9,579 nucleotides of DNA. Origin: a virus. Lineage: Duplodnaviria; Heunggongvirae; Uroviricota; Caudoviricetes. Positions 1,285 to 8,529 of this stretch are shown piece after piece. The stretch lies in the IMG/VR virus record IMGVR_UViG_2690316286_000014. One strand, 5' to 3'. Position 1 is the stretch's first letter, and every line of letters starts with the position of its first letter. Both the position numbers and the translations under genes were made by a program. The notes below the pieces were generated by a model that was not told the DNA's origin, ran no database searches, and saw only the letters and a program-made list of their open reading frames with translations.

Positions 1285-1313
1285 ATTTTAACCAAAGTCT
1301 TTATATCTATAAA
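1285..1313 (-). promoter_or_regulatory. Putative sigma70 promoter for the mok/hok mRNA
   Basis: On the minus strand, -35 TTTATA (1313-1308) and -10 TAAAAT (1290-1285) are separated by 17 nt. The -10 overlaps the stop codon of the upstream peptidase gene; the predicted start near 1278 gives a leader of about 110 nt before the mok ATG. Confidence 0.3.
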
Positions 1314-2191
1314 GAGGCACAATATTACTCGATATATCATCATGTGTGCGCCTTATTCCAAACATTTTGGAAACAAAGCGTTCCCTCACTCCCGACATAT
1401 CCAGTATCTGCTTCCAAGAAGATATATCCAGCAATTCAACTGCACAGGAAAGTAAGCGAGGTTTTTCCTCAGGGATTAACTCATCCCCCATCTCTCCTTT
1501 AATCGTCCCTCTTTTATTTAGATGGATAAATCCCGTTCTCATTTGTTGTGGCGTAATCAGCCCCAAAACCGTAGCACGATAAATACACATGCGAAGACTG
1601 ATTTTCCATCGTTCTTTGAAATTAATTAGTGCATTCCAGTCAAGATGCGATCCTCGCATTTTAGGAAATTCATTAACGAACGAAACTCTAGGTACAAGGA
1701 ATGCGCTCGAAAAATAATCCGCATGATGTTCTGTAATTTTATCCCCTGTTATAATCCCTTCATGCAAAACAAGATGCCCCAGTTCATGACCGAGATCTGA
1801 GCGAAATCGACACACACTCTTTTTCGCGGAATTTCTAATTATCAATGGGCGTTTACTATTAATAGTAAACGCATCAATACGATCATCCACGCCAGATACA
1901 TGAGCAACAACAACCCCAATACTTTCCACGAAATTAACCATTGAAGATATCGGTCCCAGCCCCAACCCCCAATACCTTCTACAGGCCTCGGCAATTCTTT
2001 CAATATCTTCATCGGAGTTCAAAGGTAATCCGGACGTATCAGGAAAGTTCAATTCTGGAAGAACTATTTCTGTTTCCAAACACTTTACAAACTGCTCCAA
2101 AATTTCAGCTCGAGCCAGAATACTATTAGTTAAGGACTGCGTCCTTGATCTCTTGCTTCTGAAATGGCAGTTCTCGCTGTCTAATGGTGAT
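1288..2191 (-). CDS. ImmA/IrrE-family (Peptidase_M78 / COG2856-like) zinc metallopeptidase domain protein; C-terminal 301 codons visible, 5' part hidden by N-run
   Basis: 301 codons are open down to TAA at 1288-1290 in sequence of about 40 percent GC. HELGH sits at 1774-1788 (minus), followed by EHHADYFSSAFLVP, which fits the HEXXH...E..A..FA..LL.P pattern of ImmA/IrrE peptidases. The preceding DIERIAEACRRYWGLGLGPISSMVNFVESIGVVV also looks typical of that domain. About 130 residues C-terminal to the domain have no recognisable motif. Confidence 0.8.
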
Positions 2192-2687
2192 NNNNNNNNN
2201 NNNNNNNNNNNNNNNNNNNNNNNNNNNNNNNNNNNNNNNNNNNNNNNNNNNNNNNNNNNNNNNNNNNNNNNNNNNNNNNNNNNNNNNNNNNNNNNNNNNN
2301 NNNNNNNNNNNNNNNNNNNNNNNNNNNNNNNNNNNNNNNNNNNNNNNNNNNNNNNNNNNNNNNNNNNNNNNNNNNNNNNNNNNNNNNNNNNNNNNNNNNN
2401 NNNNNNNNNNNNNNNNNNNNNNNNNNNNNNNNNNNNNNNNNNNNNNNNNNNNNNNNNNNNNNNNNNNNNNNNNNNNNNNNNNNNNNNNNNNNNNNNNNNN
2501 NNNNNNNNNNNNNNNNNNNNNNNNNNNNNNNNNNNNNNNNNNNNNNNNNNNNNNNNNNNNNNNNNNNNNNNNNNNNNNNNNNNNNNNNNNNNNNNNNNNN
2601 NNNNNNNNNNNNNNNNNNNNNNNNNNNNNNNNNNNNNNNNNNNNNNNNNNNNNNNNNNNNNNNNNNNNNNNNNNNNNNNNNNNNNNN
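2192..2687. other. N-run (496 nt): gap or masked sequence inside the peptidase locus
   Basis: Uninterrupted n characters; length is not a multiple of 3. Confidence 1.
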
Positions 2688-3165
2688 CAAAACCTATCAG
2701 GGCTAAAAGCCACGTTGGAGGTTCGATATCTTCATCTTTTTTATTTGCAGATGGTAATTTTTCAGCCAGAACACGCCATGTAACATCATGTTCAAAATTA
2801 ACATCATCTTCAAAAAGAGATAACTGACGACACTCAACATCATTTTTACATAAGCGATGTTTCTTTTTTGGTGAATCCAGTTTATCGGTCACAAACTGTA
2901 ACGGCACCCTGTTCAGGGTAAACACAAAATTCAGAGGTGTTGAAAGAATCGCCACTCCTTTGAGTTTTTTATGATTTTTTACAAGAAAGTTTTTTATCCA
3001 TCCATAGGCCCTACATCCATTAATCCAGTTATCATCATACTCATGGCGATGGAACCATAATTCGCCAAGTACGTTAGCAAATTGCTGAAGAAGATTGATA
3101 ACAGATTTTTCATCCAAACAAGGATTGATTTCAAAACACGGTTGGAGATTCTGTTCAGACGGCAT
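2688..3165 (-). CDS. AT-rich hypothetical protein, N-terminal 159 codons visible; either the N-terminus of the peptidase protein or a separate upstream gene
   Basis: Open frame of 159 codons in sequence of roughly 30-35 percent GC, where random stops would be frequent. ATG at 3165 is preceded by GAGGG about 7 nt upstream. Translation MPSEQNLQPCFEINPCLDEKSVINLLQQFANVLGELWFHRHEYDDNWINGCRAYGW... has no HTH or other motif I can recognise. It shares a coordinate frame with 1288..2191 (the track's 639-aa ORF), but the N-run makes that uninformative. Confidence 0.6.
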
Positions 3166-3319
3166 AAGGTATCCCTCTCTCTTAAAACTCCGCTCATCTT
3201 TACGCAAAATTTTATTTTTGTAAACCTAATCTTTGGGGTATTTCACGAATTCGTCAACCAGTTGAACGAACTTTAACCACAATACATATTTATCTACATT
3301 GATATGAGTATCGCTAACA

Positions 3320-5903: not shown

Positions 5904-6650
5904 CTACTTAACAACCCTCGAATGGCTAACATTCGGACGCCAGCTCTCCCAGTTAAAATTCACCCAGCGCCCGCCGTTCATGACCATGCGATCCATCACC
6001 CGCTCGCCGAGAAGTGTATTCATCGCTGCATGGTTAATATTTGTCAGCATCCCCACACCGCGTAACGATGCCGTCCGGCGATCAACAATCTGGTTCAGTA
6101 CCACCTGCTCGTTTTTCGTATCCCGCTGCATGCCAATTTCATCCAGGACCAGCAGGTCAACACCACAAAGCTCCTGTAAAAATTTTTCACCGGATTTGCC
6201 GTTGTCGTAGCTCTCATGCAACACGCTCATGACATCGGACACGGTGACGATAATCACGCTACGCCCCTTCGCCATCAGCCGGTTGCCAATCGCGTCTGCA
6301 AGATGATTTTTTCCGGTGCCGGGCTTACCGCTGAACACAAAATTCGTACAGCCTGTCATCAGTTCGTCAGCTATGGATTTCGCCTGACTCAGTGCATGTC
6401 GCTGACCGTCGTTCTGCGCCCGGTAATTCGCAAACGAACACTTCCGGTGCAACGGCTGGATGCCGGAGCGGTTCAGGATTTTTTCCACCCGCAACTGACG
6501 ATTCAGGCGGTTGATCTCCTCGCAACGTTTCTGGCCTTCAGCAAGTTGCCACTCGCGCCACTCCGCTACCGTTCTGAATGGGGCGGTTACATGTGGCGGG
6601 GTCAGTCGGCGGATGCGTTCCAGAACGCCTCCTGTCGCAATATTTTTCAT
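5904..6650 (-). CDS. DnaC/IstB-like AAA+ helicase loader (prophage replication protein, 248 aa)
   Basis: Walker A GKPGTGKNHLA and Walker B LLVLDEIG are present. The protein is close to chromosomal DnaC along its whole length as I recall it (NRSGI.PLH..CSF.NYR, LTNSN-like segment, GERVMDRM). ATG at 6650. Confidence 0.9.
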   Translation of the reverse strand: MKNIATGGVLERIRRLTPPHVTAPFRTVAEWREWQLAEGQKRCEEINRLNRQLRVEKILNRSGIQPLHRKCSFANYRAQNDGQRHALSQAKSIADELMTGCTNFVFSGKPGTGKNHLADAIGNRLMAKGRSVIIVTVSDVMSVLHESYDNGKSGEKFLQELCGVDLLVLDEIGMQRDTKNEQVVLNQIVDRRTASLRGVGMLTNINHAAMNTLLGERVMDRMVMNGGRWVNFNWESWRPNVSHSRVVK

Positions 6651-6656
6651 GGTCTG

Positions 6657-7856
6657 TTACCCCCTGAAGCCTGGCGGGATCGCACTGTCCGGCAACGAGA
6701 CGGTGTTAACCTGTCGGAGCAACGTCTCAGGCCGAACACCTTTCGGCGCGAACAGACCCTGGTATTCATTGGCGATGCTGTGTCGAATCACCTGCTCAGG
6801 TGTAAAACCCTGCTGACGGAATTTTTCCAGTTCCCGTATCGCCCCGTTAGCGCCCTGCTCCGTTCGAATCGGTTTTCGCAATGCCTGCCTGAACTGGACC
6901 CACTCATGCCAGAGTGTTTCTGGCAACCAGTCGGGCAGATCAACTGACAACGGGTCAAATTTTTTCTGGCGAACAGCCCCACCGATAACCAGAATTCCCT
7001 GCTCGGTGTGCCTTGCGATATCACTGCGCCGCAAGACACATATCCCGGTTTCAACAGCACCGATTTTGAGCAGTGATTTCTGTCGCGGAGAATTTCGGTC
7101 AAGCTCGCTCCCACACCGGACACCGTTCCTGTCAGTCACGACGATATCAATCCGCCCTCCGCAACCGTCACCACGCTCTGGCACCGGATACTCACGACAG
7201 ACATCCAGGCCAGCAGCCTGCAACGCAACCACCGCAGAATTACAAAATTCCGCTGCAGTACCGCCAGATAATCTCCCCTCAAGCACTCCAGCCACAAAAT
7301 CCCGAAACTCCCTTCCGGAAGGGAAGGGTTTGGGATGGGTTAGATCTGTTTTTAGATCTTTATCTGTATCTTTATTAGTTGCCTTTGTGTTGGCATCATG
7401 TTCGAACATCACTCCAACATCTGTTTGAACACCTGTTAAATTTCTCTCTTGTTTTGTTTGAACATCTGCTTCCTTTCTGCTTCTTCTGGCCTGAACAGAT
7501 GCTTTTCCTGCGGCTGATTTTTTGGTTAATTTTTCTCTGACAGATGCCAGATCTTCCTCAATCCGAAGATGCATCCATTCGTCGCCGTTATCACAAAAAA
7601 ACTCCCGCAAGGATGGTTCAACATCAACCCATCGCTCGTTAGTCAGACGGGCAATTTTTGCCAACCTGTTTTTGGGTATTGGCTTTCCTGTTTGCCAGTA
7701 ATTGAACATCAGCAACAAATACGCGCCGTGCTCCTCTGCTGACAAATGCATGGTGTCAGCCAGGTAATCAGCTATGTACAGTTGCATGTATGGTAATGCG
7801 GCCATAATTGCCCCGTATGATGCTGCCCGGTTGCTTAGAATAAGCACAAACAGCAT
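6657..7856 (-). CDS. Phage replication initiation protein: DUF1376-like N-terminal domain plus DnaT-like C-terminal domain (YdaU-like, 399 aa; true start may be the internal ATG near 7805)
   Basis: N-terminus MAALPYMQLYIADYLADTMHLSAEEHGAYLLLMFNYWQTG is DUF1376-like. C-terminus ...VNTVSLPDSAIPPGFRG matches the DnaT C-terminus as recalled. A low-complexity K/T/D-rich linker lies between them. The stop is 4 nt upstream of the DnaC-like start, a dnaT-dnaC-like pairing. Confidence 0.85.
   Translation of the reverse strand: MLFVLILSNRAASYGAIMAALPYMQLYIADYLADTMHLSAEEHGAYLLLMFNYWQTGKPIPKNRLAKIARLTNERWVDVEPSLREFFCDNGDEWMHLRIEEDLASVREKLTKKSAAGKASVQARRSRKEADVQTKQERNLTGVQTDVGVMFEHDANTKATNKDTDKDLKTDLTHPKPFPSGREFRDFVAGVLEGRLSGGTAAEFCNSAVVALQAAGLDVCREYPVPERGDGCGGRIDIVVTDRNGVRCGSELDRNSPRQKSLLKIGAVETGICVLRRSDIARHTEQGILVIGGAVRQKKFDPLSVDLPDWLPETLWHEWVQFRQALRKPIRTEQGANGAIRELEKFRQQGFTPEQVIRHSIANEYQGLFAPKGVRPETLLRQVNTVSLPDSAIPPGFRG
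7340..7505. repeat. Iteron-like direct and inverted repeats with an adjacent AT-rich segment: candidate replication origin inside the initiator gene
   Basis: Near-identical 14-mers TGTTTGAACACCTG (7422-7435) and TGTTTGAACATCTG (7455-7468); related copies TGTTCGAACATC (7399-7410) and AACATCTGTT (7416-7425); inverted copy CCTGAACAGATGC (7489-7501). An AT-rich block at 7340-7378 contains TTAGATCT twice. Confidence 0.4.
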
Positions 7857-7868
7857 GGAAACTTTTGC

Positions 7869-8290
7869 TTAATGAACAATGACAGAATCGTCGGAAGACC
7901 CGCCGCCGCTGAAATGCGCTTTCCGGTAAACGGCCTGGACTGCATCATCATGCGCATCAATTGCCGTACTCAACGCTTCCTGCGCCGCCAGTAATGCACG
8001 GCGTTCCAGGGTATCGAAGATGCAGAGTCGGTGACGCAGCTCGCGCGGAAGAATTGCCAGAACCGCAGGGATCAGTTTCTGAATTTTTTCCCTTTGCGCT
8101 TTCGTTTCACCTTTCAACCAACGGTGATAGATATTCTGCTGATTGTTCCAGTCCTTGCCTGGTACAAGGGGCAATTCGCCGCCCCCCTGGCGCAGATATT
8201 CTTCAGTAATTGCGTTAGCGACCCACGCCTGCCCTTTTTCGGCTGCCAGGGCAACAGCACTGATTCGATGTGCTCATGCCTGATTTTCAT
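7869..8290 (-). CDS. YdaT/CII-like prophage regulator with an apparent frameshift near 8252-8256 (possible pseudogene or sequencing error)
   Basis: ATG at 8290-8288 overlaps the Cro-like stop (ATGA) and reads MKIRHEHIESVLL before drifting into rare codons and a stop. The coding-like frame with E. coli codon usage (...ALAAEKGQAWVANAITEEYLRQGGGELPLVPGKDWNNQQ...SDDSVIVH) is offset by one and has no standard start before the TTG at 8174 (track ORF 7869..8174). One extra base in the + strand run GCAACAG would join the two into about 140 aa, the size I recall for YdaT. Confidence 0.6.
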
Positions 8291-8529
8291 GAATCAACCG
8301 CTCCTATGCTGTTTTCGCTATGCTTACCGTCTGGGGGGAATACATCGTCAAGTCCACAATGAGCGCCAAGCCGATTAAGGGTAGAAACAATTTTTCTGCA
8401 CTCCTCTAGTCCAGGGGTACGAAAATTTGCTTCGTAATTTGCCAGTCGGCTTTGTATCCACCCTAACTGAACAGCAAGTTGTCTTTGAGACAGCCCAAGC
8501 TGTTTTCGATATGTTGAAATTTTGTTCAT
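8287..8529 (-). CDS. Cro-like XRE-family helix-turn-helix regulator (80 aa)
   Basis: ATG at 8529 with GGAGG 5 nt upstream. HTH segment LGLSQRQLAVQLGWIQSRLANYE. Divergent from the repressor gene. Confidence 0.85.
   Translation of the reverse strand: MNKISTYRKQLGLSQRQLAVQLGWIQSRLANYEANFRTPGLEECRKIVSTLNRLGAHCGLDDVFPPDGKHSENSIGAVDS

Follow-up and report, generated by a model that had tools for sequence, protein, structure and literature searches.

Where on a Rac-type prophage does replication begin? An origin of Rac, oriJ, has been known genetically since the late 1970s, and Diaz and Pritchard are said to have mapped it in 1978-79. No nucleotide position for oriJ was found in annotations or in the accessible literature, and the RefSeq record of Escherichia coli MG1655 contains no origin feature and names YdaU only as a DUF1376 protein. 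Here, the question is addressed on the IMG/VR record IMGVR_UViG_2690316286_000014, a stretch of 9,579 nucleotides (the window, by which the whole stretch is meant), which is a portion of a Rac-type lambdoid prophage of E. coli/Shigella. An earlier note on this DNA had proposed that iteron-like repeats next to an AT-rich block, both inside the replication initiator gene ydaU, constitute a prophage origin comparable to that of phage lambda. Based on the sequence and its relatives, positions about 7340-7502, perhaps extending to 7615-7625, are quite likely the vegetative origin of this Rac-type prophage, embedded in the gene for its own initiator. The locus probably corresponds to the oriJ known from genetics, whose fine structure had not been mapped.

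Repeats and an AT-rich block inside ydaU

The initiator gene lies on the minus strand, and the repeats occupy codons 118-173 of its open reading frame (ORF) of 399 codons, after the DUF1376 domain and before the DnaT-like domain. On the coding strand, the motif RTGTTCRAAC is present in five to six copies between 7388 and 7501, that is, three strong and three weaker units (R1 to R5 in Table 1). The TGTTCA cores start at 7497, 7464, 7431, 7419, 7408 and 7395, with spacings of 33, 33, 12, 11 and 13 bp, which are all near multiples of 11 bp, or one helical turn. Among them, R3b, R4 and R5 form a tandem array (7388..7421) with a period of 11-13 bp, as well as a 32-bp imperfect palindrome, whose arms (7388-7403 and 7404-7419) are 81% complementary. 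The K-12 allele of the array reads GATGTTGAAGTGGTGTTTGAACATGATGTCAACA, and the window allele differs from it by a few bases in R3b, R4 and R5; the core of R3 is invariant across 48 E. coli/Shigella haplotypes.

The clustering of the repeats exceeds chance. All matches to RTGTTYRAACA with no more than one mismatch in the 9.6-kb window fall within 7398-7465 (6 strand-hits against 1.57 expected), and GATGTTSAAAC with no more than two mismatches is matched 15 times against 5.6 expected, a number reached in 0 of 200 shuffles. The description of copies in both orientations turned out to be trivial, because the core of the motif is near-palindromic; with the flanks taken into account, every copy in the linker has the same orientation. 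One outlying copy is found within the DUF1376-coding part (7615-7625). It corresponds to an upstream pair of sites in relatives, CCGTTGAAnnnTCGTTGAA, of which the window retains only the first unit, and we count it as part of the origin with low confidence. The repeat region has no match to any Rfam family. Single-strand hairpins were considered as a feature of 7330-7510 and dropped, since the folding is only marginal (z = -1.97).

Directly adjoining the repeats on the promoter-distal side is the AT-rich block that had been described with them (7340-7385). Its coding strand reads GATACA GATAAA GATCTA AAAACA GATCTA, T accounts for 26 of the 46 bases of the plus strand, and the repeated TTAGATCT occurs at 7340-7347 and 7352-7359. 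A 6-bp period is also detected by Tandem Repeats Finder, at 7356-7375. This is the stretch of lowest GC content in the ydaU-ydaV region, but in the window as a whole, itself AT-rich, it does no more than rank among the lowest 14%. As judged by comparison with relatives, the block is the local version of a family-wide (GATACA)n repeat, and it is presumed to serve as the DNA-unwinding region. It contains two GATC sites, at 7343 and 7355, 12 bp apart, which could point to control by SeqA/Dam.

Are the repeats more than an echo of the protein sequence? When the codons of residues 118-173 were redrawn synonymously from the prophage's own usage with the protein kept, the repeat-pair score was 2.0 +/- 2.2 (maximum 13), and the observed score of 21 was reached in 0 of 2000 redraws. 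The reading frame of R4 is not that of R1-R3. In relatives, the repeat period is 11 bp, so the reading frame rotates from unit to unit and no amino-acid repeat results. Codon choice in relatives is also invariant. In their TD runs, Thr is encoded by ACA in 88 of 88 cases and Asp by GAT in 89 of 89, compared with 15% and 38% elsewhere in those genes, and the RST motif encoded by their repeats uses CGT for Arg (23/25), TCA for Ser (32/32) and ACG for Thr (30/32). Such invariance shows that the DNA is the target of selection. The repeats are a feature of the DNA and not a side effect of the protein sequence.

The protein itself has a mosaic build, in which a DUF1376 N-terminal domain is followed by a long helix, the repeat-bearing linker, a nuclease-fold middle domain and a DnaT-like C-terminal domain. 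Pfam identifies DUF1376 (PF07120) at residues 22-104 (E=7e-25, 87.6 bits against a cut-off of 30.1), and the domain models as a winged helix resembling winged-helix initiator domains, including that of the plasmid initiator 4pta. The last ~90 residues match the C-terminal domain of DnaT in a PDB sequence search (2ru8, E=2e-4; 9zbt, E=8e-4), which supports the label given to this part before. PHROG places the protein among primosomal and O-like initiator families, its C-terminal ~80 residues matching phrog_678 ('replication initiation O-like'), and no NCBIfam model matches it. Some relatives have a Pfam DnaT domain, while others have unrelated C-termini. Concerning the position of the repeats, the proposed linker between the DUF1376-like and DnaT-like domains was correct on its N-terminal side, where the repeats do follow DUF1376, but not on the other, where a nuclease-fold domain of ~115 residues sits between the repeats and the DnaT-like domain.

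The element in relatives and in mosaic alleles

Relatives were gathered by tblastn together with pattern scans for YdaU-like genes in phages and genomes (L numbers below are our labels for the loci compared). They come from Citrobacter, Kluyvera, Enterobacter, Pantoea, Serratia, Rahnella and Pseudomonas, as well as from Propionivibrio, Methylococcaceae, Azotobacter, Marinobacterium, several alphaproteobacteria and others. In these genes, two to five tandem units with a GTTCAAC/GTTGAAC core directly follow a conserved AGKAS helix and are followed at once by (GATACA)2-8; for example, the tandem units read aacgaccGTTCAACgaccGTTCAAC...gaccGTTCAACgaatata in Rahnella. Across 50 loci, the interval +250..+480 from the start codon contains exact GTTSAAC at about 15 times the density of the remaining sequence (4.6 versus 0.30 per kb), and the spacings of neighbouring copies are 11 (eight times), 22 (seven times) and 33-34 (three times). 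For 30 of 57 loci, a motif-blind measure of repeat density peaks in the repeat interval, a part making up ~11% of each locus. Many gammaproteobacterial members contain the second pair mentioned above inside the DUF1376-coding part, with near-invariant codons GTT, GAA, TCG and TTG.

The hexamer repeat (GATACA)n, with n from 2 to 8, is always read as Asp-Thr, in initiators 25-70% identical and in hosts of 41-67% GC (L093-L138, L005-L007, L152-L191). The reverse test started from bare DNA, when the pattern GTTCAAC, 3-30 nt, GATACAGATACAGAT, the last being (GATACA)2GAT, was scanned in 2.9 million viral contigs. Forty stretches were found. Just downstream of a DUF1376 domain and on the same strand lay 34, with protein identity down to 25%; three were in another initiator-like gene, so that 37 of the 40 stretches are in initiator-type genes, two had too little upstream sequence to judge and one was a chance match. 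Plasmid records with YdaU-like genes number only 14, mostly megaplasmids, and include no small replicon that would prove autonomy. On these patterns we raise, as a possibility held with some doubt, that phased GTTSAAC units and (GATACA)n may form an undescribed, deeply conserved type of origin belonging to DUF1376 phage initiators across Proteobacteria, the hexamer being a sequence-specific signal. That signal, as single- or double-stranded DNA, might be read by a conserved partner, such as the initiator, its DnaT-like domain or a host replication-restart factor.

The hexamer block varies in its details. In enterobacterial relatives (L093-L103) it often includes several GATC (Dam) sites, of which Serratia (L103) has four, and blocks of the Pseudomonas type consist purely of GATACA. 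In DUF1376 phage genes at a greater distance, the equivalent position is taken by repeats of the (TAACCA), (GAACCAA) or (CCAACCC) type.

Does the repeat sequence change together with the protein that is supposed to read it? In distant DUF1376 phage genes the architecture is kept, but the sequences can differ. In Moraxella and Methylophilaceae phages, GTTCAAC units are followed by (TAACCA)-type repeats, and homologues in Acinetobacter and Vibrio phages have different short repeats at the equivalent place. A subclade with an extra domain (L112, L113, L116, L117, L118) lacks GTTSAAC and has CTACNGTAG palindromes immediately before the GATACA block. Taken together, the repeat sequence covaries with the N-terminal DNA-binding part. 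The extra domain of this subclade is located after DUF1376, at about +300 to +700 from the start codon, with the motif GYVYF...IKIGYSKNPWARLSELR; Pfam names no domain there at E<=0.001, and we make no claim from its GIY-YIG/T5orf172-like look by eye. In the Moraxella phage Mcat25 (L141 1501-2317), the initiator frame stops right after three CCGTTCAAC repeats, the AT-rich stretch taatatatatacacacac is intergenic and a second ORF follows, so that the origin-like block splits the gene in two.

Within E. coli, the same block marks the place where modules are exchanged. The window ydaU is 96-99.7% identical to Rac-type ydaU of E. coli except in its middle segment, and ~98% identical to K-12 across the repeats. 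The canonical gene (L002; MG1655) has 285 codons, and the window gene agrees with it through the whole repeat region and again over the last ~100 codons, with ~125 different codons in between. An in-frame insertion of the extra 114 residues was considered and rejected, since comparison with the initiator gene of strain M19 (L149) reveals a mosaic junction at the microhomology GATCTAA, downstream of which the sequence is shared with the M19-type initiator and not with K-12 ydaU. The middle segment of the window is carried by 40 E. coli genomes, and in the two examined (M19 and E9) the annotation assigns the N-terminal part to another protein that is not YdaU. In the M19-type initiator this N-domain has no Pfam match and comes with three TGTAACGC-N4-GCGTTACA palindromes of 20-24 nt, ~200 bp apart, which may be the origin or the operator of that cassette. 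Immediately behind the GATACAGAT block, the 48 haplotypes diverge into four or more distinct continuations. These breakpoints indicate that the N-domain, the repeats and the hexamer block move as one cassette, behind which C-terminal modules are swapped, in agreement with the lambdoid rule for origin specificity.

In the annotation by the NCBI pipeline, the window-type (L001 3058-4257) and the M19-type (L149 1692-2822) initiator are each split into two partial pseudogene fragments, between which a gap is left unannotated. Both ORFs are open end to end, with 399 and 376 codons, and look like mosaic genes rather than broken ones.

Known origins, a possible mechanism and alternative explanations

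How does the ydaU element compare with known origins? In lambda, the iterons of the origin (ori-lambda), along with its AT-rich tract, lie in the middle of gene O (PMC7466680). In ydaU, too, the element is located mid-gene, between a DNA-binding N-domain and a C-domain expected to recruit the helicase loader. Read along the gene, several similar repeats that have internal dyad symmetry precede a promoter-distal, AT-rich and strand-asymmetric tract, which adjoins them; N-domain and repeats make up a single specificity cassette; the helicase loader encoded next is the partner of the C-domain; and the whole is part of the rightward early operon. However, YdaU is not a member of the O family (Pfam reports only DUF1376), its C-terminus is DnaT-like and its loader resembles DnaC/IstB instead of P. 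The units are ~11-12 bp long and phased at multiples of 11 bp, compared with four 19-bp iterons in lambda, the AT-rich tract is the conserved hexamer repeat (GATACA)n, and the window allele has an extra nuclease-fold domain. By analogy, the element may work like ori-lambda while standing outside the O/ori-lambda sequence family. The lambda parallel drawn in the earlier note thus gains comparative support from codon invariance, relatives, covariation, breakpoints and folds.

Origins inside initiator genes, with direct repeats, a winged-helix initiator and an AT-rich neighbour, also occur in phages of Gram-positive bacteria, gene 38 of SPP1 with oriL being an example, and iteron plasmids whose Rep proteins are of the winged-helix kind have direct repeats of 17-22 bp beside an AT-rich region. 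In contrast to these, the element in ydaU has much shorter repeat units and no DnaA boxes, and no sequence relationship to them was detected.

The identification with oriJ relies on the same prophage family and the same gene. For Rac, an active origin named oriJ is reported (PMC3945230), and plasmids based on oriJ have been studied, as judged from the title of Potrykus et al. (2000) in the reference list of PMC11014345. The linker of MG1655 ydaU reads the K-12-type sequence, to which the repeat region of the window is nearly identical. Besides the few bases in R3b, R4 and R5, the window allele differs from K-12 in its downstream module.

From these features a mechanism may be suggested. The N-terminal winged helix (DUF1376) of YdaU would bind the RTGTTCRAAC repeats, whose spacing near multiples of 11 bp would align the proteins along a single helix face, wrapping or bending the DNA and producing a bent nucleoprotein complex like the O-some of lambda. 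The strain would be relieved by the opening of the adjacent AT-rich, strand-asymmetric block with its 6-bp periodicity. The DnaT-like C-domain would then hold the single strand and/or recruit the complex of YdaV (DnaC-like) and DnaB. Transcription from the promoter on the cro side through ydaS, ydaT and ydaU would pass over the site. For the window itself we infer binding by YdaU, unwinding of the hexamer block, helicase loading and activity of this copy.

Several observations weigh against an origin at this place. In relatives the arrays are tight, at 11 bp; in E. coli the copies follow the pattern more loosely and stand further apart, and R1, R3b and R5 are weak. R2 reads GATATTCAAAAA in the record of phage Rac-SA53, and is possibly dispensable for that reason. 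Across the E. coli/Shigella haplotypes, conservation of the repeats does not clearly exceed that of the codons around them. DnaA boxes and 13-mer unwinding repeats, the hallmarks of an iteron-plasmid or oriC-like origin, are lacking; TTWTNCACA occurs nowhere in the window, and the likeness of GATCTGTTTTTAG to the oriC 13-mer was discarded because such matches appear at chance frequency. The DNA element stays unchanged in relatives while the N-domain diverges to ~25% identity, so that a reader other than DUF1376 may be involved; a conserved partner for the hexamer, as suggested above, would explain this constancy. Rac has also been called replication-defective (PMC11014345). Finally, the 'oriJ' primers of PMC3945230 amplify MG1655 1422240-1422394 (about 6239-6393 in the window), inside ydaV and ~0.9 kb from the repeats, a placement that may reflect a different belief about the location of oriJ. 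Since ydaV has no local repeats inside, and the amplified segment neither a repeat nor an AT-rich feature, we treat these primers as a nearby amplicon and not as a map.

Could the same features arise without an origin? Selection on the protein alone, with the repeats as a by-product of a low-complexity linker (VQT/VQA, KD/TD), would fit the shared frame of R1-R3, which encode SVQA/DVQT/GVQT, and the peptide DTDKDLKTDL encoded by the AT block. This explanation, which the earlier note had named among the findings that would overturn its proposal, is rejected by the synonymous redraws, the deviating frame of R4, the frame-rotating 11-bp period of relatives and their ACA, GAT, TCA, ACG and CGT codons, which are invariant even in GC-rich hosts, and we give it next to no credence. 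It is also very improbable that (GATACA)n and the short repeats are neutral products of slippage, persisting by chance and common descent. Although the hexamer copy number ranges from 2 to 8 between loci, as slippage predicts, the unit, position and frame are constant in lineages whose proteins are 25-60% identical and whose hosts have 41-67% GC, and neutral microsatellites would be expected to decay much faster.

Other explanations accept a function of the block and deny it a role in initiation. The repeats may be genuine binding sites of YdaU or another protein, used for regulation (autorepression, a transcriptional roadblock or copy-number handcuffing), with the origin elsewhere. Initiators often autoregulate through their own iterons, an additional site exists upstream in the gene, one palindrome copy of the M19-type initiator lies just upstream of its start codon, and the published primers for oriJ fall in ydaV. 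The sites are, however, 350-470 bp inside the gene and always directly followed by an AT-rich or hexamer block, as in lambda; ydaV has no other repeat cluster, and the only other repeat peak of many loci, ~0.8-0.9 kb upstream, is taken to represent immunity operators. On balance we regard regulation with a distant origin as unlikely. Alternatively, the block could be mainly a recombination hot spot, offering microhomology or a microsatellite for module exchange, or a target of the nuclease-like domain. Breakpoints do pile up right after it, the window junction uses GATCTAA microhomology, and nuclease-fold or extra domains adjoin it. Yet a crossover site leaves unexplained why the repeats are phased at 11 bp, specific to the protein and covariant with its DNA-binding part, and why the hexamer is strictly conserved over deep divergence; lambdoid module exchange predicts breakpoints at the origin anyway. 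A hot spot or nuclease target without a role in initiation thus seems a poor candidate.

Coordinates and neighbouring genes

The coordinates of the features are collected in Table 1. The gene order racR - ydaS - ydaT - ydaU - ydaV is that of a Rac-type replication region, as compared with the MG1655 layout, with the cI/racR-like helix-turn-helix (HTH) gene on the plus strand. Window positions 6600-8000 have matches in 1553 of 5426 complete E. coli genomes, with 90-99.7% identity, and a full-length match in only two of them.

Table 1. Coordinates of the ydaU element, its gene and neighbouring features (window positions unless a locus is named)
Feature	Position	Strand	Remarks
R1, weak copy	7490-7502	-	plus strand CCTGAACAGATGC; coding GCATCTGTTCAGG; 33 bp upstream of R2; E. 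coli alleles conserve it
R2	7455-7466	-	plus strand TGTTTGAACATC; coding GATGTTCAAACA
R3	7422-7433	-	plus strand TGTTTGAACACC; coding GGTGTTCAAACA
R3b, degenerate unit	7410-7421	-	coding GATGTTGGAGTG
R4	7399-7410	-	plus strand TGTTCGAACATC; coding GATGTTCGAACA; contains the perfect palindrome TGTTCGAACA
R5, degenerate unit	7388-7397	-	coding GATGCCAACA
Outlying motif copy inside DUF1376-coding part	7615-7625	-	coding GATGTTGAACC; 1 mismatch to GATGTTSAAAC
AT-rich block, A-rich on coding strand, 6-bp period	7340-7385	-	26% GC (26-30% across measurements)
Mosaic junction at microhomology GATCTAA	7336-7346	-	alignment to canonical ydaU; M19-type (L149) sequence
ydaU-type replication initiator gene	6657-7856	-	ORF list and translation; open, 399 codons
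DUF1376 domain coding region, presumed origin-binding winged helix	7545-7793	-	
Middle domain, residues ~173-297	6966-7339	-	restriction-endonuclease-like (PD-(D/E)XK) fold; absent from K-12 YdaU
DnaT-like C-terminal domain, residues 307-399	6660-6938	-	presumed to bind single-stranded DNA or recruit the helicase loader
ydaV, DnaC/IstB-like AAA+ helicase-loader gene, directly downstream of ydaU	5904-6650	-	Pfam IstB_IS21 4e-18, Bac_DnaA 4e-7
ydaT	7869-8291	-	
cro/ydaS-like HTH gene	8287-8529	-	
M19-type palindromes	L149 2436-2459, 2643-2666, 2835-2858		one upstream of start codon, one in N-domain coding part, one in linker

The suspicion that ydaT is damaged proved right. Compared with a 99.6%-identical genome, it has a 1-nt deletion at about 8253, which shifts the frame after ~12 codons and leaves a 101-codon ORF from a TTG start, although the deletion may be a sequencing error. 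The ydaU ORF and ydaV are both open, the latter at full length, and the repeats and the AT block are intact relative to K-12 apart from the few substitutions in R3b-R5.

Away from the replication region, positions 1103-1278 on the minus strand match the sok antitoxin RNA in Rfam (120 bits against a gathering score of 59), which indicates a hok/sok-type toxin-antitoxin locus in the prophage. On the same strand, an AT-rich segment at 1288-3207 contains an ORF of 639 codons, whose single protein product matches the two components of the anti-phage system RosmerTA, with an RmrT-like part at residues 26-150 and an RmrA-like part with an M78 peptidase domain at residues 339-617. It may be a fused or mis-joined defence gene.

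What would an origin in ydaU mean for Rac and its relatives? It gives candidate coordinates for oriJ at the nucleotide level. Although ydaT is frameshifted in this copy, the cis element and both replication genes look intact, and the prophage may still replicate after excision. DUF1376, a domain of unknown function, would acquire a concrete role as an origin-binding winged helix, as its modelled fold suggests; this role and the GTTSAAC/(GATACA)n signature are the parts that would be new to a specialist. With this simple DNA signature, candidate origins can be located in related phages and prophages of many Proteobacteria.

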